From an uncultured Bacteroidales bacterium (GTDB taxonomy: Bacteria; Bacteroidota; Bacteroidia; Bacteroidales; VadinHA17): a DNA stretch of 64,000 nt. The stretch is taken from the NCBI GenBank assembly GCA_963701745.1, contig CAVPBE010000004.1, forward strand, positions 7,607-71,606, read 5' to 3'. How positions within the stretch are numbered: position 1 is the stretch's first letter; the number at the start of each line of letters is the position of its first letter. The notes under the pieces were generated by a model. That model searched no databases and had not been told where the DNA came from. It saw only the letters and a list, made by a program, of their open reading frames with translations. This document shows positions 5,151 through 57,904 of this stretch, piece after piece. Made by a program: the position numbers and the translations under genes.

Positions 5151-6523
5151 ATGGACATAGAAATCTTATCACGATTGCAATTTGCATTTACAATTGCATT
5201 TCATTACATCTATCCTCCACTGAGTATTGGGTTAGGAGTTGCATTGGTTGTATTTCGAAGGGATGTACCTTCGTACCAAAGACAAGCATTGGGAACAGCT
5301 TACAAAATTCTGGATCAAAATATTTGCACTGATATTTGGAATCGGAGTTGCAACAGGAATAGTAATGGAATTTGAGTTTGGCACAAACTGGGCAGCCTAC
5401 TCGCGATATGTTGGAGATATTTTTGGAAGCGCTTTAGCAGCTGAAGGTGTTTTTGCTTTCGCCCTTGAATCTACTTTCCTGGGTGTTTTGCTTTTTGGAT
5501 GGAACAGAGTAAGCCCCAAAGTTCATTTTTTTTCAACCCTTATGGTAACATTTGGTTCTATGTTTTCAGCAATCTGGATTGTAGTCGCCAACTCATGGCA
5601 GCAAACTCCGGCAGGATTTAAAATTGTTGGGGAAGGATTGAATGCAAGGGCTGAAATTACAGATTTCTGGGCAATGGTTTTCAATCCATCTTCAGTAGAC
5701 AGGATTATGCATGTGTGGATAGGAGCTTTTCTGGCAGGTACTTTTTTAGTCCTGAGTGTTCATGCCTATTATATTCTTAAAGAACAGGTTTGTTGAGCAA
5801 TCAAAAAAGGCATTTGGTATAATACTTGTAATTGCAGCAATTTCTGCACTGGCACAATTGCTTACAGGCCATAGTTCGGCAAATGGTGTGGCAGAAAACC
5901 AGCCGGCAAAACTTGCTTCATTTGAAGGGCATTATGATAGTTTGGCAGTTGCCGATATGTACCTGTTTGGGTGGGTTAACGAAACGAAACAAACAGTTAC
6001 CGGAATAAAAATACCAAAAGGACTGACGTTTCTGATTCACCAGGATTTTACAACTCCGGTTAAAGGCCTCAACGCTTTTAATAAAAACGACAGGCCTGCA
6101 TATGGTTAACTTTGTTTTTCAGACATATCATTTAATGATTTCAATAGGTATGTTACTGATTGGGCTTACGCTATTTTCGCTCTTTTTATGGTGGAAAGGA
6201 AAACTTTTTAACAAACGATGGCTGATGATAATATTCAGCTTTTCGGTAGTGCTTCCGCAAATAGCAAACCAGGTTGGGTGGTATTCAGCCGAAGTAGGCC
6301 GGCAACCATGGGTTGTTTACGAACCTTTTACGGACTTCTGATGCACTGTCTGAAAATGTAAGAGCAGAGCAAGTGTTATTTTCTCTTATCTTATTCACCC
6401 TGGTTTATTTGATTCTATTCAGCTTGTTTATTTATCTGCTGAATAAAAAAATACAACACAGGATTGAGATCTTGCAGGACCAGGAAAGGAATATCCTCAA
6501 AAACCAACTTAACGACAAAATAA
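5151..6523 (+). CDS. cydA: Cytochrome bd ubiquinol oxidase subunit I (several frameshifts)
   Basis: [41 protein letters not shown] and AEVGRQPW across consecutive ORF fragments; TAATG overlap with cydB start. Confidence 0.85.
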
Positions 6524-7560
6524 TGGAAACATTTTTAAATATAGAATTTAGGAACCTGGATGTTTCTGGTGATTGGTGCAGTATTTAGCGGATACGCAAT
6601 CCTTGATGGTTTCGACCTTGGGGCAGGAACAGTGCATCTTTTTCTGAGAAAAGAAGAGAGCAGGCGGATAGCTCTCAATGCAATTGGTCCTGTTTGGGAT
6701 GGTAACGAAGTATGGCTGGTAATTGGCGGCGGAACGCTCTTTGCAGGTTTCCCAAAAGTTTATGCAACTTTGCTTTCAGCCTTTTATACACCTTTTATTT
6801 TATTCCTGGTTTTACTTATTATGACGGGCCATCGCAATTGAATTTCGAAGTAAAGAAACTATGCTTTGGTGGCGTAAACTATGGGATATCATTTATTCAG
6901 TTTCGAGTACGTTGGTCGGTTTTACACTCGGAGTAGTACTTGGAAATGTTGTATCTCGGAATAGCGATTGATGATAATATGATTTACAAAGGTGGACTGC
7001 TTGATATTTTCAATCCTTATGCACTGCTTACCGGACTTACTGTTGTAGCTCTTTTTGCACTGCATGGTTCGGTTTACCTTGTAATGAAAACGGATGATAA
7101 GTTAGCCGACAGACTTGTTTATATTTCAAAAATTGCAGGTATATTTTTCACCATCTGTTATGTTATTCTGTCAGTAGCAACACTCGTTTATGTGCCTCAT
7201 GCTGCTGATGAATTTAGGGAAATGCCCATTTTATTTGCGATTCCGGTTATAACATTATTGTTACTTTTAAATGAGAGAAGGTTAATTGTTAAGAAAAAAT
7301 ACTGGCTGGCTTTTTTAACATCGGCTGCATTAACATCGTTGTTGCTGATTACTATTGCAATAGGTCTGTATCCAAATATTCTGCTTTCAAGCATTGACAG
7401 CGCATATTCCCTTACAATTGCAAATAGTGCCGCTTCACATAAATCGCTGGGTATAATTCTGACTTTTGTGCTTATCGGAGCCCCGCTGGTATTGATTTAT
7501 ACTATTTTCCTCTTCAGAACATTCAGAGGAAAGGTTGTTTTAGATGAAATGAGTTACTGA
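6523..7560 (+). CDS. cydB: Cytochrome bd ubiquinol oxidase subunit II (several frameshifts)
   Basis: [24 protein letters not shown] and C-terminal FRGKV. Confidence 0.85.
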
Positions 7561-7731
7561 GTAAAATAAATGAGAAATGAAAAACTATCTGATTATCGGG
7601 GCATCTTCCGGGATTGGAAAAAAACTGGCAGAAATGCTGGCAAATTCCGGCAATAAAGTGTATGGCACTTTTTGTACTAAACCTGTTCAAAACAATGACG
7701 CCAGGGCCTGAGTATCATTTCTGCAATGTAT
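7559..7731 (+). repeat. Direct repeat copy B (SDR 5' end)
   Basis: Near-identical to 1027-1196, with an extra C at 7699. Confidence 0.9.
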
Positions 7732-8303
7732 TGGAAGAGACCTTGAATTTTAATTTTTTGCCTGACAGTCTGGATGGATTGGTTTATTGTCCGGGAAACA
7801 TTACTCTCAAACCATTTGGAAGGATCAGACCGGAAGAGTTCGTTCAGGATTATAACCTTCAGTTGGTTGGAGCGGTCAAAGTTATACAGGCTGTTCTTCC
7901 AAAACTAAAATCCTCAGAAGCTGCATCTATAGTATTATTCTCCACTGTTGCCGTTAAATCGGGGTTTAGCTTTCATTCACTGGTTTCGGCATCGAAAGGC
8001 GCAATTGAAGGCTTAACAATATCTTTGGCAGCAGAGCTGGCTCCAAAAGTTAGGGTCAATTGTATAGCTCCGTCACTTACCGATACCCCGTTGGCAGAAC
8101 CATTATTAAATAGTGAAGAAAAGAAGGAGGCCAATGCTCAGCGACATCCTCTAAAGAGGATTGGCAATGTAACTGATATAGCAGAAATGGCCGGATTTTT
8201 AATTTCTGATAAATCAGGATGGATTACCGGTCAGGTATTCCACGTAGATGGAGGTATATCAACACTTAAGAATTTGACATATGCTATAATCAGAACTATA
8301 TAG
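7577..8303 (+). CDS. SDR family oxidoreductase (1-bp insertion at 7699)
   Basis: ATG 7577 gives MKNYLIIGASSGIG; after the extra C the frame continues with ASKGAIEG, RVNCIAP and ITGQVFHVDGG. Confidence 0.85.
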
Positions 8304-10702: not shown

Positions 10703-12967
10703 ATGAAAAGAATATTCATAATATGCGTTTTGATATTATTTTATCATTCATTAAACGCACAAAACAAGATCATAGGAAAAATTACAGACCAGAATAATTT
10801 ACCATTGACAGGAGCAACAATATTCATATCAGACATGAATAAAGGAACAATTTCAGATAAAAATGGGAATTATGAATTATCAAATTTACCAAATGGCAAA
10901 AACAGAATTCAGTATTCATTCGTTGGTTTCGCTAACCGTATTGAAACAGTTGAGCTTAAATGGAGAAAGTATAGAACTTAATATTTCACTAAAACAAACG
11001 GCAATTGAAGCAGACGAAGTGGTGGTTATCCGGTGGTTATAATTCAACCCAACATGAAAATGCAGTAAAAATTGACGTACTAAAACTTGACCCTCATACA
11101 ATTAAAAATACACCTAATTTCACAGAAGTACTTACACAAGTGCCTGGCGTTGAAATGATTTCTAAAGGGAGCGGCGTTTCAAAACCTGTTATTCGTGGAC
11201 TTTCAATGAATGACATTTTGGTTTTAAATAATGGAGTGCGGTTTGAAAATTATCAGTATTCAAGTCATCATCCACTTGGAATTGACGAATTTGGAATTGA
11301 AGATGTTGAAATCATCAAAGGACCTGCTTCATTGCTTTATGGCTCCGATGCAATTGGCGGGGTTATTAATTTTATCAAAGAAAAACCTGCTCCTGTTGGC
11401 AGTATTATTGGCGATTACAATTTGCAGTTTTTTTCAAACACACTTGGAATGACAAATAATTTTGGAATAAAAGGAGCATCGAAGAAATTTTTCGGAGGAT
11501 TAAGAGTTGGTCAAAAAACAAATTCCGATTTTCTTGCAGGGAGGTGGTGCTTTTGTTCCCAATTCGCGTTTTAATGAAATATCAGTTAAAAGCAAATGCA
11601 GGATTATACAGATAAAGTCGGAACATTTCAAATTGTTTTATGATTTCAATAATCAGAAACTTGGATTGGTGGAAGACGAAGCAATTGAAGAAATCACAGA
11701 AAGAGGAAGAGAAAACAGAAATTTGGTATCAGGAATTGAATACTCATTTACTTTCTTCGCAAAACAAGTTGTATTTGGGCAAATTTAAACTTGATATTAA
11801 TTCAGCATATCAGAATACAGAATTGATTCATTTTGGTGAAGTAGATGTTTATGAAATACAAATGAGGCTTTCAACACTTAACTTATGAAGCCAGGCTTCA
11901 TTTACCTTCGAAAGAAAATTCAGAATATATTATCGGTTTTCAGGGTTTTAATCAAACAAATACAAATCTGAATGACAGAGAAACAATGTTATTGCCTGAT
12001 GCTATAACAAACAATTATTCTGCTTTTGGTTTATTACAATATACTTTTTTAAAGAAATTAAAATTGCAAACAGGTGTTCGTTACGACAATAAATCAATTT
12101 CAACACAAGCAGTTGGGTCAGCCAGCTGACCCGTATGACCTATCGTGCAGCCCTTGATAAGTATTTTGGCAGTTTCAGCGGTTCGTTTGGTGCAACATAT
12201 AATTTATCTGAAAAACTTCTTATTCAGAGCAAACTTTGCCGCTGCTTACCGTACTCCAAATTTAGCTGAACTTACTTCAAACGGACAGCACGAATTGCGA
12301 TACGAAATCGGGGATAATAATCTTGTTCCTGAAAATGCCTATGAAACGGATTTGAGTATTCATTACCATAAAGATAATTTCACTTTCGACATTGCAGGTT
12401 TTTACAATATCATCAATAATTATATTTTTATTTCACCAACAGGCGACACTACATCTTCGGGGATTGATATATACAAATATAAGCAGGCTAATTCAGCTTT
12501 ATTTGGTGGTGAGGCAGGTTTGCATATTCATCCAAAACAATTAGAATGGCTGCATTTTGAAACAACATTTTCATCAGTTATCGGAAAACAAGACAATGGT
12601 GACTATTTGCCTTTTGTACCTGCGCACAAATTGCGTTTTGAATTAAGGGCAGAAAAAGAAAACTTATTGTTTCTGCAAAAAGCATTTGTTTCAGTTAATA
12701 CAAGCAACTGCATTTAATCAAAATGAATGCTGCTCCTGATGAAACAACAACTGCAGGTTACTACACTTTTAGATCTGAGTATAGGAGGAAATATAAAAAT
12801 GAAAAACCAATTTATTTCAGTCAGGCATAAGTGCAAATAACATTTTTGATAAAAAATATATTGACCATTTATCGACATTAAAAGAAGTGGATTTATATAA
12901 TCCGGGGAGAAATATTGCATTAAATTTAAGAATCCCATTTTCAATAACAAAAGATGAGAAACAATAA
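10703..12967 (+). CDS. TonB-dependent outer-membrane receptor (many frameshifts)
   Basis: CarboxypepD-like N-domain, plug motifs KPVIRGL and VEIIKGPASLLYGSDAIGGVIN, RTPNLAEL, C-terminal YNPGRN..LNLRIPF. Confidence 0.85.
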
Positions 12968-42887: not shown

Positions 42888-44387
42888 ATGGGGAAAAACA
42901 GGACGGCAGTTATCATAGGAGCAGGTATCGGAGGTATCACCACTGCCGTTTATCTTGCGAAAAAAGGGTATAGTGTAAGTGTTTATGAAAAGAATTCATC
43001 TCCCGGAGGGCGCTGCGGTCAGCTGATACGTGAAGGCCATCGGTTCGACCTTGGGGCAACAATGCTGATGATGCCCGGAATTTACCACGAAACTTTTGAT
43101 TCACTTGGAATAGAGCTTAAAGAAGGAAGTGACATCGTCCGGTTGAAAGATCTTTACACCATCTTTTTTGATGACTGCAGTCGTCTGGCATTTACGAGCG
43201 ACAAGGAGAGAATGAAGGAGCAGCTGGAAAAGATAGAACCAGGAAGCTATAAAAGATCGGAAGAATATATCTCTAAAGGATACAGGATCTTCAGGCTCGG
43301 TATTGACAAACTGATAGGACGGAATTTTTACAATATCTTCCAGATGGTAAATCTGAAAAACGTCCCGCTGCTTTTCAGAATAAAAGCCTTTACTCCCCAT
43401 TATAAATTTGCGCAAAGATTTTTCACCCATCCTCACCTGCTGATGGCATATACTTTTCAGAATATTTATGTGGGGCAAAGTGCTTTTGATGCTCCGGCTC
43501 TTTTTTCAATGGTTCCGGCAGCAGAAATTACTGAAGGTTCATTTTTCCCTTCCGGAGGAGGAATGTTCAGGATTGTAGAAAAAATGCTAAAAGCAGCTGA
43601 AGAGAAAGGGGTGCAATTCTATTACAGCAAACCTGTAAAACAAGTAATCATTACCGGGAAAAAAGCAGATGGAATTATACTTGAGAATGGGACCGAGATA
43701 AGATCCGAAATAATAGTTGCCAATGCCGATCTTCCCTATGTTTACCGGAACCTGCTGCCTGACAAAAGAAAATCAAAACATCTGGACAAATTAAAGTATT
43801 CATGTTCTGCCATCTGTTTTCACTGGGGACTGGATAAGGTCTATCCACAGCTTGACCATCATAATGTTTTTCTGACTGATGGATTCCGTGAAGGTCTCGA
43901 CAGGATCTTCAGGGACAAAACAGTCAGTGAGAATCCATGCTTTTATGTACATGCGCCTGCAAGAACTGATCCCGAGGCTGCTCCAATGAATAATGATACC
44001 ATCTCAGTTGCTGTTGCAACAGGGCATATAGATAAGAATTACAAGCAGGATTGGGACAAAATCATTGACAGTACCAGATTGGCGGTAATTGACCGCCTGA
44101 AACGTCAGGGACTGGAAGATATTGAGCACCATATTAAGTTTGAAATATGTCATTCGCCTGAAAGCTGGGAAAATGCCTGCAATATTTCAAGGGGTTCCGT
44201 CTTTGGAAGCCTGGGGCATAATATTTTCCAGATGGGATATTTTCGTCCCCATAACCGTCATGATAATTACAAAAACATTTATTTTGTTGGAGGAAGCACA
44301 CATCCAGGTAACGGAATTCCAAATGTATTGTTATCGGCAAAACTTGTATCGGAAAGAATTTTTAAAGAAACCAGCGCTGAAGAGTGA
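42888..44387 (+). CDS. crtI: Phytoene desaturase family protein
   Basis: IIGAGIGG, EKNSSPGGR, FDLGAT, VANAD, YFVGGSTHPGNGIP. Confidence 0.88.
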   Translation: MGKNRTAVIIGAGIGGITTAVYLAKKGYSVSVYEKNSSPGGRCGQLIREGHRFDLGATMLMMPGIYHETFDSLGIELKEGSDIVRLKDLYTIFFDDCSRLAFTSDKERMKEQLEKIEPGSYKRSEEYISKGYRIFRLGIDKLIGRNFYNIFQMVNLKNVPLLFRIKAFTPHYKFAQRFFTHPHLLMAYTFQNIYVGQSAFDAPALFSMVPAAEITEGSFFPSGGGMFRIVEKMLKAAEEKGVQFYYSKPVKQVIITGKKADGIILENGTEIRSEIIVANADLPYVYRNLLPDKRKSKHLDKLKYSCSAICFHWGLDKVYPQLDHHNVFLTDGFREGLDRIFRDKTVSENPCFYVHAPARTDPEAAPMNNDTISVAVATGHIDKNYKQDWDKIIDSTRLAVIDRLKRQGLEDIEHHIKFEICHSPESWENACNISRGSVFGSLGHNIFQMGYFRPHNRHDNYKNIYFVGGSTHPGNGIPNVLLSAKLVSERIFKETSAEE

Positions 44388-45331
44388 TGACAAATTCGCA
44401 CAGGGAACAATTCATTGAGAGATTCAACTCAATTGATTTCAATAAGATAATTGATCATCCCAATATACTTATTGCTGCCAATTTCTGGGATGAAGACAGG
44501 TTTTGCGCTGCAAAAACCTGCTACAGGTTTATGCGGACAATTGATGATATGATTGACAATTATAAAGCAGCCAACAGGATGATCGACCCTGAAAAAAGAA
44601 AAGAGTTCATATCTGGCGTCAATGAATGGCTGAAAACGATTATAATTTCGGAAGACTGTAATCCCGAAAAGGCAACGCTAATCAAAACCATCGAAAGGTT
44701 CAGTATCCCGTTATGGCCCCTGGAAGCATTTGCAAAATCAATGATCTACGATATAAATAATGACGGATTTGAATCTCTTGAGTCATTTTTAAATTATGCA
44801 CAGGGAGCTTCGGTTGCTCCGGCGTCGGTCTTTGTCCATCTGAGCGGGCTTACTTCGCACAATGGCCAATATATTATTCCCTCTTTCGATGTAAGAGAAG
44901 CTGCTACTCCTTGCGCCATTTTCAGCTATTTTGTACATATTATCCGTGATTTTCAAAAGGATCAGTTTAATAATCTCAACTATTTTGCTGATGACCTTAT
45001 CATGAAAAATGAACTAACCAGGCGGGATCTTAAAAATATTGCGCACGGAGCACCTGTTCCTGACCGATTCCGTAACCTGATCAGGGAGTATTATACTTTT
45101 GCAGACGGATACAGAAAGAAAACCAGGGAGATCATAGAAAAGATTGGCCCGGCTATGGAGCCAAGGTATCGGCTGAGCCTTGAAATAATATTCAGTCTTT
45201 ATGTGATGGTATTTGAGAGGATCGATGTTGACAAAGGAAACTTTACTTCTTACGAATTAAATCCGACACCTGAGGAGACCAGGGCAAGGGTTTTGGAAAC
45301 AATTATTAGGTTCCCCTCCCTGGAGGGGTAA
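44384..45331 (+). CDS. crtB: Phytoene/squalene synthase family protein
   Basis: YRFMRTIDDMID and HIIRDFQKD aspartate-rich motifs; overlaps the crtI stop. Confidence 0.75.
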   Translation: MMTNSHREQFIERFNSIDFNKIIDHPNILIAANFWDEDRFCAAKTCYRFMRTIDDMIDNYKAANRMIDPEKRKEFISGVNEWLKTIIISEDCNPEKATLIKTIERFSIPLWPLEAFAKSMIYDINNDGFESLESFLNYAQGASVAPASVFVHLSGLTSHNGQYIIPSFDVREAATPCAIFSYFVHIIRDFQKDQFNNLNYFADDLIMKNELTRRDLKNIAHGAPVPDRFRNLIREYYTFADGYRKKTREIIEKIGPAMEPRYRLSLEIIFSLYVMVFERIDVDKGNFTSYELNPTPEETRARVLETIIRFPSLEG

Positions 45332-49802: not shown

Positions 49803-49906
49803 AACCAACGGTAATTGAATCAGGAGTAGGGGTTGGTCTTAATTGCCGTCAGCTTTAGCTGACGGATGCAGAAGCTTCTCCCCTTTCAGGGACTTCAGTC
49901 CCTGAA
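49794..49906. repeat. REP-like palindrome cluster at the 3' side of tnpA
   Basis: CCGTCAGC-TTTA-GCTGACGG and TTCAGGGAC-TTCA-GTCCCTGAA; the same units recur at 50432-50800. Confidence 0.85.
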
Positions 49907-50329
49907 TTTCTCAAGATTGTATTCCTCAATTAACTTGTTCAATTCTTCTTCAAGTGTAACTTTTTTGTGATGTTGAACCTGATTCCTGATATACTTCCTC
50001 AGTTCATTCAACTGATTCATCCCTATTGATACTGCATAGTAATCATCCTGCCATTCAAATTTTAATTTTGTCAGGCTATTCTTGTTGATCCAGAAAGAAC
50101 TTTCTCCCTTGATCTGTTGCATTATTTCAGAAGTGTTTTGTTTACCCCCCAACGATAGTATAATATGCAAATGATCATAATAACCATTTATTTGATCTAT
50201 ATAAATTCCTTTTGATTTTGCATTCTCGCGAATATGTAAGATGACACTACCTCTTATGTGATCCTGCAAATATGGAATTCTGTTTTTTGTGGTCCACACA
50301 CAGTGAACCCAGATCCTTATGAATGACAT
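49895..50329 (-). mobile_element. tnpA: IS200/IS605-family Y1 HUH transposase, no tnpB
   Basis: HCVWTTKNR, HUH motif DHLH, KGESS, FEWQDDY, catalytic Tyr in YIRNQ. Confidence 0.9.
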
Positions 50330-50943: not shown

Positions 50944-52179
50944 ATGAAAAGATTCTTAACTACCTCGATACTTGCAACAATGCTTGCAGTCGGGACCGCA
51001 CTTATGGCTCAGGATTATCCGGATGAATATCTGGGTCTGCCCGGAGATAATTTAAACCTCTATGCCGTAATGAATTTATTCCAGAAATCTGAAACCATTG
51101 AAGGTTTTGAAAGAAGCCTTAACGATGAGAACACCAGGATAAATAACCTGGATCTTAATAATGATAACTATATCGATTATATTAAGGTGGCTGACTATGT
51201 CGACGGTAACGTCCATACAATAGTCCTGCAGGATGTCCTTGACCGGAATGAAAGTCAGGATGTGGCTGTCTTCACCGTCGAAAAGCTCCGTGACGGATCG
51301 GTACAGATACAGCTTATAGGAGATGAAGCCTTATATGGGAAAAACTATATTGTGGAGCCCAAATATGCCGAGACACCAAACCCCGGTTATACAGGCAGGA
51401 CAAACAGGAAGAATGTAAGTGTTGTTACAAACAACTATATTATGGTTGATTCGTGGCCGCTTGTAAGGTATATTTATCTTCCCAATTATTCAGTATGGCA
51501 CTCTTCGTGGTACTGGGGTTATTACCCTGAATACTGGCACCCATGGCGCCCTTACTATTGGCACTACTATTACGGATACCATTATAACTGGTTCCCTGAG
51601 TACTACAGTCACTTCCATCGTTACGACCATCCACGTTATGCACACTGGAACGATTTCTACTACAGCAATAAGAGGGTTTATTCAAAAAATGTCGTGATCA
51701 ATGTAAATGAAGGCCATTATAAAAATACTTACTCACGTCCCGAGCAGAGACGGGAAGGCGAAGCCCTTTATGCAAAAGTACATCCCGAAAGAGCATCAAG
51801 TATGTCGACCGGAAACAGCAATAGCAGAAGACAGGCTTCTGAAGGTGTCTCCAACAGGCAGTCTGTCGGATCAGATAATGGAACTTCAAGACGTTCAACA
51901 GGTACAGTAGAAGGTAATACAAGGGCTAATACAAATTCCTCTGGAGGGCAGAGTACTGTTACTAACAGGAGATCATCATCTGAAACAGTTGGTTCAAGAC
52001 CTGCTTCAAGCTCAAAATCAGATCAGAAGGCTGAACCTTCAAGAACGACCAGACAGCAGTCGACGGGACAAAGCTCCTCAACACGCAGAACAACAGAGAG
52101 AGCAAAAAAAGAAACTGTTATAAGGCAGAGCTCCTCAACAAAAAAAGAATCTGAAAGCAGTTCAACTCGCAGGAAATAA
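50944..52179 (+). CDS. Secreted hypothetical protein with EF-hand-like loop, aromatic-rich segment and Ser/Arg/Thr-rich tail
   Basis: Signal peptide; DLNNDNYID; WHSSWYWGYYPEYWHPW; low-complexity C-terminus. Confidence 0.7.
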   Translation: MKRFLTTSILATMLAVGTALMAQDYPDEYLGLPGDNLNLYAVMNLFQKSETIEGFERSLNDENTRINNLDLNNDNYIDYIKVADYVDGNVHTIVLQDVLDRNESQDVAVFTVEKLRDGSVQIQLIGDEALYGKNYIVEPKYAETPNPGYTGRTNRKNVSVVTNNYIMVDSWPLVRYIYLPNYSVWHSSWYWGYYPEYWHPWRPYYWHYYYGYHYNWFPEYYSHFHRYDHPRYAHWNDFYYSNKRVYSKNVVINVNEGHYKNTYSRPEQRREGEALYAKVHPERASSMSTGNSNSRRQASEGVSNRQSVGSDNGTSRRSTGTVEGNTRANTNSSGGQSTVTNRRSSSETVGSRPASSSKSDQKAEPSRTTRQQSTGQSSSTRRTTERAKKETVIRQSSSTKKESESSSTRRK

Positions 52180-52337: not shown

Positions 52338-53129
52338 ATGTTACGTTATTTATCCATGTTATCAGCTTTGTTTGCTTTATCCCCGGGATTTGCTCCTGAA
52401 AAAAAACCAAAACCAACCATTTATCTTATCGGCGATTCAACAGTTAAGAACGGAAGCGGCAAAGGAGAAGGAGGATTATGGGGCTGGGGAGCTTTTCTGA
52501 ATACTCAGATCGACACATCGGAAGTTTCAATCAGAAATTATGCCATGGGCGGAAGGAGCAGCAGAACATTTATAAGTGAAGGGCTATGGGATAAAGTACT
52601 GGCAAAGCTGAAGCCTGGCGATTATGTTTTCATCCAGTTCGGGCATAATGACAGCAGCCCGGTAAACGATAACAGCCGTGCAAGGGGTACACTAAAGGGA
52701 ACCGGTGAAGAAACCGAGGAAATTGACAATATCCTTACAAAGAAGCATGAGATAGTCCATACATACGGATGGTACATCCGGAAATATATTTCTGATGCAA
52801 AAGCGAAAGGAGCCATTCCGGTAGTTTGCTCCCTGGTTCCGAGGAATATGTGGGAAAACGGAAAGGTTTTAAGGGCTTCAGAGGATTACGGGAAGTGGGC
52901 TAAAGAATCAGCTCAGGAAGGAAAGGCATATTTTATCGATCTGAATGAGATTATCGCTGCAAAATATGATCCTCTGGGGGAAAATGAAGTCACTGCAAAG
53001 CTTTTTCTGACCGATCATACGCATACAAATGAGACCGGAGCAATTATAAATGCACAGGGAGTAGCTGAAGGAATCAGGCAACTGAATAGATGTAAGCTTA
53101 AGAAATTTCTTTCGCCCCCTGCCCCCTAA
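52338..53129 (+). CDS. Rhamnogalacturonan acetylesterase-like SGNH hydrolase (CE12)
   Basis: IGDSTV, AMGGRSSRTF, QFGHND, DHTHTN; start trimmed to ATG 52338. Confidence 0.88.
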   Translation: MLRYLSMLSALFALSPGFAPEKKPKPTIYLIGDSTVKNGSGKGEGGLWGWGAFLNTQIDTSEVSIRNYAMGGRSSRTFISEGLWDKVLAKLKPGDYVFIQFGHNDSSPVNDNSRARGTLKGTGEETEEIDNILTKKHEIVHTYGWYIRKYISDAKAKGAIPVVCSLVPRNMWENGKVLRASEDYGKWAKESAQEGKAYFIDLNEIIAAKYDPLGENEVTAKLFLTDHTHTNETGAIINAQGVAEGIRQLNRCKLKKFLSPPAP

Positions 53130-53182
53130 AGGGGGTTCATTATATCCTGAATATCAGCCCCCCTTCAGGGGGGTTGGGGGGC
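53115..53182. repeat. Inverted pair of C/G-rich hairpins between convergent genes
   Basis: CCCCCTGCCCCC-TAAA-GGGGG ... CCCCCC-TTCA-GGGGGGTTGGGGGG. Confidence 0.65.
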
Positions 53183-53187
53183 GGTTA

Positions 53188-54387
53188 TCAGAATGCAGTA
53201 ATTACTCCAACACTCACTTTCCCGTATGAGTCAGGATTAAGAATCTGTGTAAATTCCCCGACAACCCTCATATTACGCCTCAGAAGATATCCTGCATGCA
53301 GGGTTGCCGAACTGTAATCCAGACTATTATAATCCGATTCAACCCAGTTATAGAGTCCGGTAAGGTACCATTTGCTCATATCTCCTTTAGGAGCATATAT
53401 AACTTCTGCAAAAGCGCCTGAAGTCAAAACATCATGTTCAAGTAAACCAGGAGTATCGCCAGCAACTCTTGAGTCGGTTCTTCTTACATACTGTGCATTT
53501 ATAATCAGCTTTTCATCAATGTCAATTGTAAGATCCGGACCGAACATCTGTATCTGACTGACATCTGTATAGTAAGGATCATAAACCACTTCCCTTCCGG
53601 TATAACCGAAAATACCGATCGAAATATATTTGCCGATCGACTGGTTTATCCTGACCATATAGTTCTTGTACTTATCTTTATCAAATATGTATCCCTCCCT
53701 TGCTTCACCAATGCCGCATCCGTTAAGAATTTGTGCAACAACTGTCGTCCCGGTCGAAAAATCCTTCTCAATTATCACACCTCTGTCATATTTCAGGTCG
53801 GCGGTTGAAGTCCCTGGAGCAGATCCATATATTTGATAAGGTTCAAGAGTGTATCTCAGTTCACTTTTGAAGAGCGGGTCTGAAACCTGGAACTGGCCTG
53901 CATACAGGTTAATTCCGGTATTAAGAAAATTGTTATATATCAGGAAAGCATCCTCAAGGCCGGCAACTGAGCCTCTTTCATTCATAAGAAAATAGAAATA
54001 ATATGAAAGATGATCAGATATTTCACCGCCTGATAGTATTTTAAGGACAAAAGGTGCTGCAAAATCAGGAGTCCCTTCATTATTGAAATTATATGAGGTA
54101 AATCCGTCAATCCTTATTGCGAGAGGGAGCTCCCTGAAGAGAGAAAGCTTATCATCGCCAGTCTGAATAAAATATCTTGGTGATTCGTATTCCTTCAGTC
54201 TGAAACCGTTCCCGGCAAATTCATCGCCGAATGGCTTCAGTCTTGGCATCGCAGGTGAATGGCATACCTGGCAGCTTATCTGGTATTTCCGGGCAAACGC
54301 AGGGATGGCATTACCTGGTTTGGAGGGAATGAAAAAAAGAAGAACTGAGGCAAACAGGGTGATTGATACGTATTTATGGGTTTTCAT
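53188..54387 (-). CDS. Cyc2-like fused monoheme cytochrome c / outer-membrane porin
   Basis: Signal peptide, then IPAFARKYQISCQVCHSPAMPRLKPFGDEFAGNGF (PxFARK..CxxCH..PxL..FG..F..NG signature); beta-strand-rich C-domain ending in Phe. Confidence 0.75.
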   Translation of the reverse strand: MKTHKYVSITLFASVLLFFIPSKPGNAIPAFARKYQISCQVCHSPAMPRLKPFGDEFAGNGFRLKEYESPRYFIQTGDDKLSLFRELPLAIRIDGFTSYNFNNEGTPDFAAPFVLKILSGGEISDHLSYYFYFLMNERGSVAGLEDAFLIYNNFLNTGINLYAGQFQVSDPLFKSELRYTLEPYQIYGSAPGTSTADLKYDRGVIIEKDFSTGTTVVAQILNGCGIGEAREGYIFDKDKYKNYMVRINQSIGKYISIGIFGYTGREVVYDPYYTDVSQIQMFGPDLTIDIDEKLIINAQYVRRTDSRVAGDTPGLLEHDVLTSGAFAEVIYAPKGDMSKWYLTGLYNWVESDYNSLDYSSATLHAGYLLRRNMRVVGEFTQILNPDSYGKVSVGVITAF

Positions 54388-54405
54388 AGAATTAGGATTT
54401 AGTTT

Positions 54406-55782
54406 TTATGGCAAAATCTGAATACTTGTTGAATGATCGTTCACGTGTTTAATTTCAGATTCATCTGCAGGTACTTTCAGGAAATCAGCTACAGACTTTA
54501 CAAGGAGCTGGTAGTTTAAAACAGCCTTCACAGTCATTACACCCTGAGCAGCATCATTTGGTATACGGAAAGTAAACTTTTCGACTTTTGTTTCCCTTGG
54601 TCCAATGCGGTAATCCACTCCCTGTTTTGCTGTGTTCCATTGCATAATCGTCATTCTGCCTTCAGGGTCAAAATATGGCATCCTGAATATCCTGTTACCT
54701 GACGGGATCCCGTCACGCTGAACGCCTTTGAAGTCGGGTTGACCAAGAGGCACACCCATATCCTGGTATGCAAGATAATCTCCTGATATTGTGTATTCTT
54801 CTCCCTCAAATCCCTTTTTGTCGACATTAAGATGGTAAACCTTGCCCTTTGAATCTGTTGCTTCAACATTCAGCCATGCAATACGATCTTCAACCGATCC
54901 TGTCGGGAATTTATGTCCCGTTTTCTGGTTAAAGAGAGCAACTGTAAAAATCACACTCTCTCCCGGTTCAGCCTCACGTACATCAGGATGGATCCTGACC
55001 TCAATTGTTCCTCTTACTTTACCCGGATCATGTGCGCCATGAAACAGGTGAATCCTTGCATCGTCATATGGTTTTGCCATCAGGGCATTAAGAAAAGGAC
55101 CTCCCTTAGGCATATGACAATCCTGGCAATGAACTTCCTCTTTTGCATATGGCCCCTCTTTCCATTCCAGCTGGGTGCTTTTCACCCAGACTCCAAATGG
55201 ATTTTTTTCATTGTGGCAGTTGCCGCAGAATTCTGTTGTACGGAAGAAATCGTTCGTAACTATTTTGTGCGCAGGAGATTCAACTGTTGGAGTACGTCCG
55301 GCATATTTAGTCATCCCCGGCCTGATTAGATAGCTAAAATTATAAGGTGGGTCTGTCTGGGCCGATTGTGTCAGGTGGCACACTTCACAGGAAACAGATT
55401 CATTGGCCATGCTTTTTTCAGAAGGCCTTGGAGGCGGAAATTGCTTCCCTCCCATAAAAGCCAATGGAGCATGGCATCCGTTGCAACCGTCAACTGGATC
55501 TTTAAGATCAGGCTTTGCTGCCGCATGTGGTACGGCAAGATCAAAATATTCTATTTCATCCCAGTGATGCGTATAGGCCTGTGACATCATTGCCTGGGAC
55601 CATTGTTCATATATGCCCGGATGACACGATCTGCATTTCTTTGCGGATTCAAAATCCTTATAGTCATATTTGCTCTTCAGGTTCTCCTGCGGCAGCATAA
55701 GTCTGAACGCTGTCAATAACAATATAACAATACCAGAGGAGCCAAGAAGCACTAAAACAAGCGAATTGGTTTTTCTGCTCAT
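54406..55782 (-). CDS. Pentaheme c-type cytochrome (c554-like) with N-terminal membrane anchor or signal
   Basis: Five CxxCH motifs: CRSCH, CNGCH, CEVCH, CGNCH, CQDCH; GHKFPTG in the C-domain. Confidence 0.88.
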   Translation of the reverse strand: MSRKTNSLVLVLLGSSGIVILLLTAFRLMLPQENLKSKYDYKDFESAKKCRSCHPGIYEQWSQAMMSQAYTHHWDEIEYFDLAVPHAAAKPDLKDPVDGCNGCHAPLAFMGGKQFPPPRPSEKSMANESVSCEVCHLTQSAQTDPPYNFSYLIRPGMTKYAGRTPTVESPAHKIVTNDFFRTTEFCGNCHNEKNPFGVWVKSTQLEWKEGPYAKEEVHCQDCHMPKGGPFLNALMAKPYDDARIHLFHGAHDPGKVRGTIEVRIHPDVREAEPGESVIFTVALFNQKTGHKFPTGSVEDRIAWLNVEATDSKGKVYHLNVDKKGFEGEEYTISGDYLAYQDMGVPLGQPDFKGVQRDGIPSGNRIFRMPYFDPEGRMTIMQWNTAKQGVDYRIGPRETKVEKFTFRIPNDAAQGVMTVKAVLNYQLLVKSVADFLKVPADESEIKHVNDHSTSIQILP

Positions 55783-55857
55783 AGATTTTGGATTTAAGGA
55801 AATCTAAGATAAGCAGATTTTTCTAATCATATTATATTTATTATTACAAAAAATACA

Positions 55858-56598
55858 GTGAAGGGGTCGATGCACAGCATTATAATCATACTATTGTCAG
55901 CTTCAATGCAATTGAATACCAGCTACAGGTCGGAAATATATTCTGCATATGTAAACAACAAAATGGATCTCTGGCGAGATGTTATTGACAGAATGGATAC
56001 AATCCCAGAAAAAAGCAATGAGCTGCTTCTTGAACTTGTAAATTACCAGTACGGATATATTGGATATTGCGCAGGATTCGATAAAAAAGAGGAGGCAAAG
56101 AAATATCTTGATTTAGCCCAAAGGAATGTCGAGATACTTGAGAAATGTAATTATAACCTGTCGGTTATAAATTCATACAAAGCTGCTTTTTATGGATTCA
56201 GAATTGGATTAAATCCCATTTCTGCTCCGGTTAACGGATTCAGAAGCATTGACTGTGCCAAAATGGCTCTAAGCCTCGATTCGGCCAATTACCTTGCATA
56301 TGTGCAGTATGGAAATATGAAGTTTTATATGCCATCCGCTCTCGGGGGATCAAAAAAGTTGGCCCTCGAGTACTACCTGAAGGCCAGAGACCTGCTTGAA
56401 CGAGAAACCGATTCCATAACAGGGAACTGGAATTATTTGAGCCTGCTGGTAGTGCTCGGACAAACATATACTTATCTGAATGATTATCTCTCTGCACAAA
56501 AGGTATATGATACCATTCTTAACATTGAACCTGAGTTTTTATATGTTAAAGATGATCTATACCCGAAACTTCTAAAGAAAATGGAGAATCCAAATTAA
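55858..56598 (+). CDS. TPR-like hypothetical protein, probably co-transcribed with photolyase
   Basis: Helical repeats (ALEYYLKA, AQKVYDTILNIEP); 7-bp gap to the next gene; start may be ATG 55870. Confidence 0.6.
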   Translation: MKGSMHSIIIILLSASMQLNTSYRSEIYSAYVNNKMDLWRDVIDRMDTIPEKSNELLLELVNYQYGYIGYCAGFDKKEEAKKYLDLAQRNVEILEKCNYNLSVINSYKAAFYGFRIGLNPISAPVNGFRSIDCAKMALSLDSANYLAYVQYGNMKFYMPSALGGSKKLALEYYLKARDLLERETDSITGNWNYLSLLVVLGQTYTYLNDYLSAQKVYDTILNIEPEFLYVKDDLYPKLLKKMENPN

Positions 56599-56605
56599 TT
56601 GTATT

Positions 56606-57904
56606 ATGAAACTCAATGTTTTCTGGTTCAGAAGAGATTTAAGGCTTGAGGATAATGCCGCACTCGATCAGGCTCTTGATTCAGATTTGCCTGTACTGCC
56701 ACTTTTCATTTTCGATACAAATATCACCGATGAGCTTCCCCGTGACGACGCCAGGATCAGCTTTATTCATGAAACTCTTACAGATATAAACAGCAATCTT
56801 CAAAAAGCCGGCAGTTCTCTTTATGTTCTGAAAGGAGATCCGGAGAAAAAATGGAAAGAACTAATTTTATCATTTGAAATCAACGCAGTATATATCAACA
56901 AGGACTATGAACCATATGCCATACAGCGTGACAAAGAGGTTGAGGAGCTTTTGAAAAGGAACGGGGTAAGCCTTTTTATTTACAAAGACCAGGTGATCTT
57001 TGAAGAAAATGAAATCATAAAACCCGACAACAGACCATATACGATTTTCACGCCATACAAGAATCGCTGGCTGAAAAGATTGTATGAAAATCCGGCTGTT
57101 ATTAACCAGGTCAAAGGTGAAAAGCATAGAAAATTTTATCAATTCAGATATTCTTTCCCTTCACTTGAGGAAACAGGCTTCATAAAAAGCTGCATAAGGG
57201 TCCGGCCTTACGATCTGTCGGTGATCTCTGATTATCATAAATATCGTAATCTGCCAGCAATTGACAGGACCAGCTATCTCTCACCGCATCTTAGATTCGG
57301 TACGGTCAGCATAAGGCAAATAGCAACCCTGGCATTGAAACAGAATATGAGTTTCCTGAATGAGCTGATCTGGCGAGAGTTCTTCATGCAGATACTGTAT
57401 CATTTCCCCGGCGTGGTAACAGATAATTTCAAACCGGTTTATGATGATATACAATGGAGAAATGATGAAAAGGAGTTCCTGAGATGGTGCAATGGCGAGA
57501 CTGGTTATCCAATAGTGGATGCAGGGATGCGTCAGCTTAACAAATCCGGGTATATGCATAACAGGGTAAGGATGATAACTGCAGGATTTCTCTGCAAGCA
57601 TCTGCTGATCGACTGGAGATGGGGTGAAGCCTATTTTGCGCAGAAACTTCTCGATTATGAACTATCGTCAAATAACGGCAACTGGCAATGGGCAGCAGGA
57701 ACAGGTTGTGATGCCGCGCCTTATTTCAGGGTTTTTAATCCTGAAACACAACAAAAGAAATTCGACCCTAAGGAAGAGTATGTAAAGAGATGGGTTGACA
57801 ACTATGGCAAACCAGATTATCCTGCAAAAATCGTGGAACATGATTTTGCCAGGCAAAGAGCTTTAGCGGTTTATAAAGCTGGCATCAAGAAAAGAATAAT
57901 CTGA
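56606..57904 (+). CDS. phrB: Deoxyribodipyrimidine (CPD) photolyase
   Basis: WFRRDLRLEDN, TSYLSPHLRFG, ELIWREFF, GYPIVDAGMR, MHNRVRM, NNGNWQW, PYFRVFNP. Confidence 0.93.
   Translation: MKLNVFWFRRDLRLEDNAALDQALDSDLPVLPLFIFDTNITDELPRDDARISFIHETLTDINSNLQKAGSSLYVLKGDPEKKWKELILSFEINAVYINKDYEPYAIQRDKEVEELLKRNGVSLFIYKDQVIFEENEIIKPDNRPYTIFTPYKNRWLKRLYENPAVINQVKGEKHRKFYQFRYSFPSLEETGFIKSCIRVRPYDLSVISDYHKYRNLPAIDRTSYLSPHLRFGTVSIRQIATLALKQNMSFLNELIWREFFMQILYHFPGVVTDNFKPVYDDIQWRNDEKEFLRWCNGETGYPIVDAGMRQLNKSGYMHNRVRMITAGFLCKHLLIDWRWGEAYFAQKLLDYELSSNNGNWQWAAGTGCDAAPYFRVFNPETQQKKFDPKEEYVKRWVDNYGKPDYPAKIVEHDFARQRALAVYKAGIKKRII

Follow-up and report, generated by a model that had tools for sequence, protein, structure and literature searches.

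The window analysed here, a stretch of 64,000 nucleotides (nt) from an uncultured Bacteroidales bacterium (assembly GCA_963701745.1, contig CAVPBE010000004.1), carries two minus-strand open reading frames (ORFs), 54406-55782 (458 amino acids, aa) and 53188-54387 (399 aa). The first encodes a putative five-heme c-type cytochrome and the second a Cyc2-type cytochrome fused to a predicted porin. Because of their architecture, their family links and their strict co-inheritance, the two products probably form a two-protein redox module. An initial annotation, made from the DNA alone, had described two co-oriented genes 18 bp apart, and the ORF list gives exactly this arrangement, with an 18-nt spacer at 54388-54405. 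Judging from the conservation described below, the two genes are supported as one conserved unit, which would be transcribed as one operon.

Cyc2 features of the porin-cytochrome

According to Keffer et al. (2021, PMC8406198), Cyc2 is defined by a signal peptide, one CXXCH motif, the motif AXPXFAR[Q/K][T/Y] five residues upstream and PXL four residues downstream of it, a length of at least 365 aa and a 16-strand porin modelled on OprO/OprP; the upstream motif is said there to be unique to Cyc2. The 399-aa protein runs from a leader ending in ...PGNA through IPAFARKYQISCQVCHSPAMPRLKPFGDEFAGNGF to a C-terminus ...ITAF. As in a signal peptide, residues 1-27 have a basic n-region and a hydrophobic core and end in GNA, just ahead of I28. 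The only CxxCH is C39-Q-V-C-H43, and C39, C42 and H43 are invariant in 41/41 relatives. Upstream of it, the Cyc2 motif reads A27-I-P-A-F-A-R-K-Y35, with five residues between R33 and C39; downstream, H43 is followed by SPAM and P48-R-L50, i.e. four residues lie between, where most relatives have three. Over these 41 relatives, which go down to 25% identity, P29 and P48 are invariant together with the three heme-motif residues, while F31, R33 and L50 are kept in at least 90%. The Cyc2-like N-terminus noticed initially is thereby confirmed as a conserved signature. Its spacing had been given as PxFARK-x5-CxxCH and has to be corrected to PxFAR-x5-CxxCH, as only four residues separate the Lys from the first Cys. 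When the 4.2-Mb genome was scanned in six frames for P.[FY][AST][RK]-x4-7-CxxCH, the site in this protein was the only one returned. Given this single site and the conservation of the motif residues, the signature is not a chance occurrence.

Structure prediction also recovered the beta-barrel that had been thought probable. Based on an alignment of 41 sequences, AlphaFold2 produced a model with a mean predicted local distance difference test score (pLDDT) of 87.1 and a predicted template modelling score of 0.84, in which 16 strands follow an N-terminal helical part. With Foldseek, this model matched 16-strand general and specific porins, among them OprP (2o4v, E 7.2e-12) and OprO (4rjw, E 2.6e-11). 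In its motifs, its length and its predicted fold, the 399-aa protein has all the published sequence and fold features of Cyc2 (PMC8406198). Within the barrel, the loop NGCGIGEAREGYIFDKDKYKN (residues 222-241) has the lowest confidence (pLDDT 66-69), yet N222, G223, D236 and K241 are invariant or near-invariant. It is possible that this loop dips into the pore close to the heme.

The porin belongs to a large family, with 3300 proteins at E <= 0.001 in a 90%-clustered collection and matches to 1295 clusters of a 50% library, of which 96 reach E <= 1e-30. None of the Pfam or NCBIfam models matches it, a PDB profile search gave nothing significant, and no match was found with tblastn among plasmids. 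In a language-model Atlas it neighbours clusters from Bacteroidota and Aminicenantota as well as a Pseudomonadota cluster partly annotated as Porin_O_P. In Aminicenantes, cyc2 has been called by FeGenie according to PMC7914226.

The pentaheme partner and the extent of the pairing

Five CxxCH motifs had been counted in the upstream gene; this number is exact, and all 10 Cys of the 458-aa protein lie within them (Table 1). Pfam recognises Cytochrome_C7 (E 6.1e-11) and Cytochrome_C554 (E 2.3e-7), and the best NCBIfam match is ExtKL (NF040886, E 8.4e-11), whose score of 41.1 bits is far from the cut-off of 250. The sole solved structure matched is the penta-heme c552 of Thermochromatium tepidum (PDB 5ze8), with an E-value of 9.6e-9 for a 31-ortholog profile and 6.2e-9 for the single sequence, in three collinear stretches that extend over the heme half as well as the C-terminal half. 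The AlphaFold2 model of the pentaheme is of low quality overall (pLDDT 55.9), with blocks of C-terminal beta strands at pLDDT 86-93; its top Foldseek match is again 5ze8 (E 1.6e-7), followed by immunoglobulin (Ig)-like domains. From its sequence, the protein belongs to the PHC family in the wide sense (c552 type), being collinear with it over the heme and C-terminal domains.

As proposed in PMC11976967, the PHC family comprises ExtKL, Gsu2801, the PHCs of cable bacteria and c552. ExtKL is described as a single selenoprotein, MccSep, a polysulfide reductase of the periplasm in which a cap carries the five hemes and the stem is Ig-like; its catalysis requires a Cys as the distal ligand of heme 2 and the selenocysteine in ...GHSIPDGU... 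(PMC13510729). Like c552 (5ZE8), MccSep (PMC13510729) and the cable-bacteria sPHC (PMC11976967), the window pentaheme has a helical half with five CxxCH motifs and then a beta-sandwich, within ~440-460 aa, and like MccSep it keeps the GH..P.G loop in the C-terminal domain. Unlike MccSep, it has Ser in the place of selenocysteine/Cys, and it scores only 41 bits with the ExtKL model, against a cut-off of 250. The form GHKFPTGS is present in 74/74 full-length orthologs, no Cys occurs beyond the CxxCH motifs in the window protein and in 73/74 orthologs, and the ORF has no in-frame TGA. With Ser at the selenocysteine place and no free Cys, MccSep-type chemistry is therefore excluded and a role in electron transfer is the simplest. 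Six His outside the motifs are invariant in the 31-ortholog alignment, for five hemes, which fits a cytochrome in which every heme is bis-His ligated and serves transfer. The partner is thus probably an electron carrier and not a polysulfide reductase, as its conserved residues suggest.

These residues also bear on a different role for the pair, in which, by analogy with ExtI and ExtKL, the porin would be a substrate channel admitting S, Se or N species and one heme of a periplasmic enzyme would reduce them. The kinship of the partner with ExtKL/MccSep, a polysulfide reductase encoded beside a porin gene, speaks for such an arrangement, as does the invariance of the C-terminal domain and of the GH..P.G loop that bears the active residue in MccSep. 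It is nevertheless improbable. The Ser that replaces selenocysteine or Cys is fixed in all 74 orthologs, 73 of them have no Cys that could ligate a heme, and the MccSep variants C239H, U325A and U325C suffer a severe loss of activity in vitro (PMC13510729). Moreover, a channel would leave the heme of the porin itself unexplained.

At the N-terminus of the pentaheme protein, the initial annotation had placed an anchor. The uncharged stretch on which this rested is present at residues 7-26; its status as an anchor is not secured, as a cleaved Sec signal fits equally well. Among the orthologs, the median length of the uncharged stretch is 20 aa, and a -3/-1 cleavage site is found in 73/74 by a permissive, crude rule. 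MccSep is described as soluble, with a 25-residue signal (PMC13510729). Of the two-component trans-envelope path proposed initially, the two components stand as a conserved two-gene unit, and the trans-envelope part is weakened by this same ambiguity of the N-terminus. A NapC/NirT quinol dehydrogenase was considered as well, as PF03264 matches at 24.4 bits against a cut-off of 24.1. This reading was set aside because the borderline match covers hemes 4-5 only (residues 181-236) and not the N-terminal heme. A quinol-binding module was not found.

Next, the pairing was followed through other genomes. A genome scan with a 10-sequence alignment, using one genome per species, confirmed relatives of the porin at at least 576 of 597 pattern-matched places. 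The best 80 of these were inspected as loci; nearly all are from metagenome-assembled genomes (MAGs) of Bacteroidales/Bacteroidota, with one contig labelled Chloroflexota. In 80/80 loci the pentaheme gene lies directly upstream of the porin gene. Its match exceeds 400 aa in 75 of the 80, and 74 of these 75 have five CxxCH motifs (L059 is cut by the contig start); the partial matches in L004, L013, L024, L047 and L053 were excluded from the motif count. Identity is 58-94% for the partner vs 52-91% for the porin, the partner being the more conserved, and the flanking genes of the window recur in merely 0-15 of the 80 loci. In an even sample of the order (301 genomes, 148 families), a strong porin ortholog (E <= 1e-100) is present in 20 genomes, and in 20/20 the pentaheme gene adjoins it on the same contig. 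The pentaheme profile matches 21/301 genomes, the extra one (G055) being a truncated copy at a cut contig in a 620-contig assembly in which no porin was found. Conservation of the pair, the lack of which would have refuted the initial annotation, is thus well established. Two of the 20 genomes have a pentaheme match in two pieces (G010:C144:5798-6985 and G049:C183:243-1213), where frameshifts or decaying copies are possible.

The adjacency could also be merely historical, with the products acting separately or one of them not being made. No RNA run is listed with this stretch and no fused form exists, which leaves some room for this explanation. Against it stand the adjacency in all 80 loci and all 20 genomes, in ~15 families of the order at 52-94% identity, the spacer of 18 nt in the window and the intactness of both ORFs in nearly all cases, making it very improbable. 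The search for longer relatives gave one candidate fusion, P0400 (964 aa), and no genuine fused form. P0400 is a read-through of the gene call, consisting of a partial pentaheme protein, out-of-frame filler, a Cyc2-like protein with its own signal peptide and further filler, and the region represents the pair adjacency in one further organism. A complex prediction with the two mature proteins and four hemes, run without controls, scored 0.00 and is evidence neither way.

The pairing has its limit. A distant Cyc2-like subfamily from metagenomes, with an FPKLNSF-type N-terminus, has 25-41% identity where more than half of the window protein aligns, and a pentaheme relative was found in 0/58 of its loci. 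Among 24 of its loci chosen for longer flanks, no neighbouring ORF has more than two CxxCH motifs. As this distant subfamily comes without the partner, the pairing is specific to one clade and not a general trait of Cyc2; on the sequence evidence, the pentaheme partner was acquired by that one clade of the family. The order sample also contains proteins of 450-510 aa that share only the Cyc2 cytochrome end and the first strands, and porins of ~350-400 aa that share the barrel only and are without the heme end. Neither kind of partial relative (e.g., at G178:C1:483491-483898 and G268:C136:18136-18972) adjoins a pentaheme gene.

Electron direction and comparison with known systems

In the mechanism proposed here, one operon would give rise to a two-protein redox module at the outer membrane. 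After signal removal, the porin would consist of an N-terminal one-heme domain at or in a 16-strand porin, and a small dissolved redox species would reach this heme via the pore. The product of the upstream gene would be a secreted five-heme cytochrome of the c552/ExtKL family, with a heme 'cap' and an Ig-like 'stem'. In the periplasm, it may be the dedicated partner of the porin heme, serving as a wire and buffer for several electrons. This role would be analogous to that of Cyc1 or rusticyanin, the partner of Cyc2 in Acidithiobacillus. Single electrons could in this way pass between the periplasmic respiratory chain and an extracellular or pore-bound species. In the case of outward flow, respiratory or fermentative electrons would be discharged in anoxic sediment, with soluble chelates of Fe(III) or humic quinones as acceptors, and reductive iron acquisition would be a possible by-function. 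Heme attachment, localisation, contact between the two proteins, substrate and direction are all points that we infer.

Known fused cytochrome-porins of this type are the Cyc2 proteins of Acidithiobacillus ferrooxidans, Mariprofundus PV-1 and Ghiorsea bivora, as well as Cyt572 of Leptospirillum (PMC8406198; PMC13692758). Like Cyc2 (PMC8406198), the window porin has a signal peptide, one CXXCH, both flanking motifs, ~400 aa and an OprO/OprP-like 16-strand barrel. Unlike the Cyc2 proteins described there, its clade always has a dedicated pentaheme gene directly upstream, and its host is an environmental, polysaccharide-degrading Bacteroidales bacterium and not a lithotrophic iron oxidiser. The extHIJKL cluster of Geobacter sulfurreducens resembles the pair in having an outer-membrane barrel gene and a PHC pentaheme gene in one cluster (PMC11976967, PMC13510729). 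However, the window barrel is of the Cyc2 type with a heme, unlike the porin ExtI, and neither ExtH (rhodanese) nor ExtJ is part of the unit, which has two genes. Likewise, the pentaheme is paired with a heme-bearing porin and not, as at the MccSep locus, with a plain porin and a rhodanese.

The idea of a periplasmic multiheme cytochrome joined to an outer-membrane barrel is shared with MtrAB/MtrCAB, PioAB and MtoAB. In the MtrAB type, a decaheme cytochrome is threaded into a heme-free barrel of ~26 strands, whereas the window porin has 16 strands and its own heme, and its partner has five hemes. These differences set the pair apart from a porin-cytochrome complex of the MtrAB type. Going by the known size of 16-strand porins, the window barrel would be too small to enclose a multiheme cytochrome. 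As it is a small barrel with a single heme of its own, soluble and not solid substrates would suit it, as has also been argued for Cyc2 by Keffer et al. (PMC8406198).

If the two proteins do form such a module, the evidence tips somewhat towards outward electron flow; the complete proposal, i.e. a module that exports electrons to soluble Fe(III) or humics, is more tentative. Export is favoured by the absence of COX1, the marker of heme-copper oxidases used here, from 5/21 pair holders (G245, G049, G072, G185 and G249) at 89-99% completeness, and G245 is of the same genus as the genome of the window. The relatives of the pentaheme also lean towards export, being of low potential (c552) or reductive (MccSep); the T. 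tepidum c552 is reportedly called low-potential in the title of its paper. All-His multihemes are the usual wires in reductive conduits. In addition, Cyc2 homologs are described from Fe(III)-reducing taxa and from Bacteroidetes MAGs of an anoxic humic bog (PMC6344600), which points the same way.

Several points weigh against this proposal. All biochemically tested Cyc2 proteins covered by PMC8406198 and PMC13692758 oxidise Fe(II), and none is shown there to work outward. COX1 is present in 16/21 pair holders vs 113/280 other genomes, which would suit an O2-linked Fe(II) oxidation; this enrichment is weak evidence because the genomes are related and because both traits need cytochrome c maturation. 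Two COX1 genes are found in the own genome of the window. The Cyc2 class of the porin is set by the published criteria and not by FeGenie hidden Markov models, which the initial annotation had suggested, or by alignment to validated Cyc2. For the pentaheme, ligation of the hemes is deduced from conservation because its model is poor. Finally, apart from H43 the family alignment contains no invariant His or Met that could serve as the sixth heme ligand of the porin, unlike the His/Met-type low-spin heme of Ghiorsea Cyc2 (PMC13692758), and the heme environment may therefore differ between the two. Speculatively, the invariant K241 could take the sixth position, or else the new N-terminus left when the signal is cleaved off just ahead of the motif.

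The close rival of export is Fe(II) oxidation, in which electrons would enter at the porin heme and go via the pentaheme to a cbb3/caa3 oxidase or to nitrate reduction, either as an extra source of energy or so that Fe(II) and the products of its oxidation stay outside the cell. Besides the record of the characterised Cyc2 proteins, whose definition the 399-aa protein matches, and the COX1 counts, this explanation can draw on the own genome, in which an ActA-like hexaheme gene lies near one of the two heme-copper oxidases. It has difficulty with the pair holders that have no COX1, including the one of the same genus, and with a partner whose relatives are low-potential or reductive. An all-His pentaheme would also be a poor acceptor of electrons from Fe(II) at neutral pH. 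To our knowledge, the known neutrophilic iron oxidisers have Cyc2 without a pentaheme partner, and it is the stand-alone distant subfamily, with its 0/58 loci, that is more like their Cyc2. On balance, Fe(II) oxidation by the pair is considered possible, though doubtful.

An assimilatory role was considered as well, in which Fe(III) chelates would be reduced at the pore and the Fe(II) imported, with no part in energy metabolism. The direction of the electrons would be the same as in export, and the gene is single-copy. However, neither an iron transporter nor a Fur-like box was found at the pair locus, and the neighbouring genes are not conserved. Over 68 orthologous upstream regions, the best match to the Fur consensus has a mean of 6.9 mismatches vs 7.7 in shuffles. 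A five-heme partner would also be lavish for the uptake of a trace metal. Iron acquisition as the main function is thus regarded as slightly less probable even than the channel and enzyme arrangement weighed above, and export by the two-protein module is retained as the working proposal.

Surroundings of the pair, host genome and significance

The features of the two genes and of their flanks are collected in Table 1. The 75-nt region upstream of the pentaheme gene is shared with a divergent TPR gene. A sigma-70 scan of it gave 7 sites vs a shuffle mean of 8.0, i.e. no enrichment, and in the 68 orthologous upstream regions neither Fur, FNR or CRP boxes nor a conserved Bacteroidetes -7 motif were found. 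Of the two hairpins downstream of the porin gene, one (53123-53135) was returned by the hairpin scan.

Table 1 Features of the cytochrome pair and its flanks (positions in the window)
Feature	Positions	Strand	Basis
Two GC-rich hairpins between the convergent Cyc2-like and GDSL-lipase genes; likely bidirectional terminator (putative function)	53122..53173	.	
Cyc2-family fused monoheme cytochrome-porin gene, 399 aa	53188..54387	-	ORF, alignment, AlphaFold2, Foldseek, PMC8406198 criteria
Predicted 16-strand beta-barrel, residues 89-399, aromatic last residue F399	53191..54123	-	AlphaFold2 strands, porin matches
Cytochrome domain, residues 28-85, with IPAFARKY, CQVCH (nt 54259-54273) and PRL	54133..54306	-	Sequence, alignment
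Signal peptide, residues 1-27, probably cleaved after GNA (putative site)	54307..54387	-	Sequence and family consensus AxA/IPAFARKY
Spacer between pentaheme stop and Cyc2-like ATG, 18 nt	54388..54405	-	Sequence
Pentaheme c-type cytochrome gene, 458 aa, PHC family (T. tepidum c552 / ExtKL-MccSep type)	54406..55782	-	ORF, Pfam, NCBIfam, PDB 5ze8
Heme-free beta-rich C-terminal domain, ~residues 255-458, Ig-like as in c552 and MccSep	54409..55020	-	Model blocks, Foldseek
GHKFPTGS, residues 289-296, Ser296 at the selenocysteine place of MccSep (GHSIPDGU)	54895..54918	-	Motifs matched by eye
Heme motif 5, CQDCH, residues 219-223	55114..55128	-	Invariant (31 aligned orthologs)
Heme motif 4, CGNCH, residues 186-190	55213..55227	-	Invariant (31 aligned orthologs)
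Heme motif 3, CEVCH, residues 132-136	55375..55389	-	Invariant (31 aligned orthologs)
Heme motif 2, CNGCH, residues 100-104	55471..55485	-	Invariant (31 aligned orthologs)
Heme motif 1, CRSCH, residues 50-54	55621..55635	-	Invariant in 31/31 aligned orthologs
N-terminal residues 1-26, Sec signal peptide or uncleaved signal anchor	55705..55782	-	Uncharged stretch 7-26, possible LTA/F site
AT-rich divergent intergenic region, 75 nt, 5' of the pentaheme gene; presumed promoter site	55783..55857	-	

Among the neighbours, an IS200-like Y1 transposase (PF01797, E 4.1e-26) is encoded at window 49895-50329 (-), 2.9 kb from the pair, and relatives of it are near 4/80 loci. A secreted 411-aa protein without a Pfam match is encoded at 50944-52179 (+); its middle is rich in Tyr, Trp and His (YYWHYYYGYHYNWFPEYY) and its long tail in Ser, Thr and Arg, and it recurs 3' of the pair in 11/80 loci, in close relatives only. 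A DNA photolyase adjoins the pair at 56606-57904. Further away, a phytoene-desaturase-like flavoprotein and a squalene/phytoene synthase are encoded at 42888-45331 (+) with an overlap of 4 nt, pointing to the synthesis of carotenoids or related isoprenoids.

The assembly of 4.2 Mb in 6 contigs is 95% complete with 0.13% contamination and contains a single copy of each gene of the pair. The glycoside hydrolases in the window (GH95, two GH78 rhamnosidases and GH43), together with esterases, agree with the polysaccharide-degrading host inferred initially. Cytochrome c maturation genes, another point proposed for checking, are represented in the genome by a 1026-aa ORF with a CcsA domain (cytochrome c assembly). 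The gene with six CxxCH motifs near one of the heme-copper oxidases is called ActA-like, its assignment to alternative complex III being from sequence alone.

The menA and cydAB genes of the window had been put forward as possible quinone-side partners of the pair, which could not be upheld for either. The presumed menA has only a UbiA-family match (E 3.8e-15), and both it and cydAB are ~47 kb from the pair. The window cydA (5166-7560; G000:C4:12772-14065) is fragmented into at least 5 Pfam pieces in different frames, with TGA, TAG and TAA between them, and the match of cydB is confined to the second half of its profile (positions 137-302). An intact cydA is located elsewhere, at C1:656272. 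The broken cydAB is either a pseudogene or the result of indel errors in the assembly. In the same part of the window, a TonB-dependent receptor is seemingly split (11005-12717), with the Plug in a 189-aa ORF and part of the barrel in a 190-aa ORF, and the SDR gene at 7614-8303 begins at profile position 70. Taken with the broken cydAB, these findings suggest that reading frames are disrupted at several places in the first 14 kb, where the GC content is lower (0.33-0.39).

A second cluster with a barrel and multiheme cytochromes is found in the same genome at G000:C1:625600-635100 (locus L090 1629-11068). It encodes a DUF5777 membrane beta-barrel, a seven-heme cytochrome with a C-terminal helix, a cytochrome b561, a 4Fe-4S dicluster protein, an NrfD-like membrane protein and a six-heme NapC/NirT-like protein. 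Also encoded there is a probable lipoprotein with five hemes, a collagen-like GxxG repeat and weak matches to MtrC/MtrF domains. A CRP-family regulator and the fused CcsBA-like gene come after these. The DNA runs listed as containing window 53100-55900 are labelled freshwater-sediment, sediment and soil metagenomes, and no RNA run is listed for that interval.

Cyc2 is widely used, e.g. by FeGenie, as a marker of neutrophilic iron oxidation. Both Cyc2 itself and the occurrence of Cyc2-like genes in Bacteroidetes are already in print (PMC6344600), and the periplasmic partner of Cyc2 in neutrophiles is stated to be still unidentified (PMC13692758). In the full texts searched, including passages of PMC8406198, PMC5566968, PMC6344600, PMC12442345 and PMC7914226 and leaving supplementary tables aside, no description was found of a fixed pairing of a Cyc2 clade with a PHC-family pentaheme, nor of a partner that is a Ser variant of the MccSep loop. 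The present analysis adds the link of the partner to MccSep/ExtKL with the exclusion of its chemistry, the counted co-occurrence across the order, the limit of the pairing, the cross-tabulation with oxidases and a corrected view of menA and cydAB. One Cyc2 clade thus comes with a fixed and highly conserved partner, from a family whose first function was published in 2026. The pair is present in ~7% of the sampled genomes of the order, and relatives of the porin occur at at least 576 places. It therefore offers a two-gene system in which the partner of Cyc2, the direction of its electrons and the 'iron oxidiser' calls made from metagenomes for Bacteroidota and neighbouring phyla can be tested, while the natural Ser variant of the MccSep active-site loop informs on the switch between catalysis and electron transfer.

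A bolder view, which we consider rather unlikely at present, is that a Cyc2 clade was re-tooled by recruiting a non-catalytic pentaheme of the ExtKL/c552 type into a minimal two-protein export conduit of the outer membrane. If this is true, abundant Bacteroidales with fermentative and respiratory metabolism, living in sediments, soils and digesters, would pass electrons to dissolved Fe(III) or humic substances, and 'cyc2' matches in these lineages would be a sign of electron export rather than of iron oxidation. The contribution of these heterotrophs to extracellular electron transfer would in that case be large and have been overlooked.

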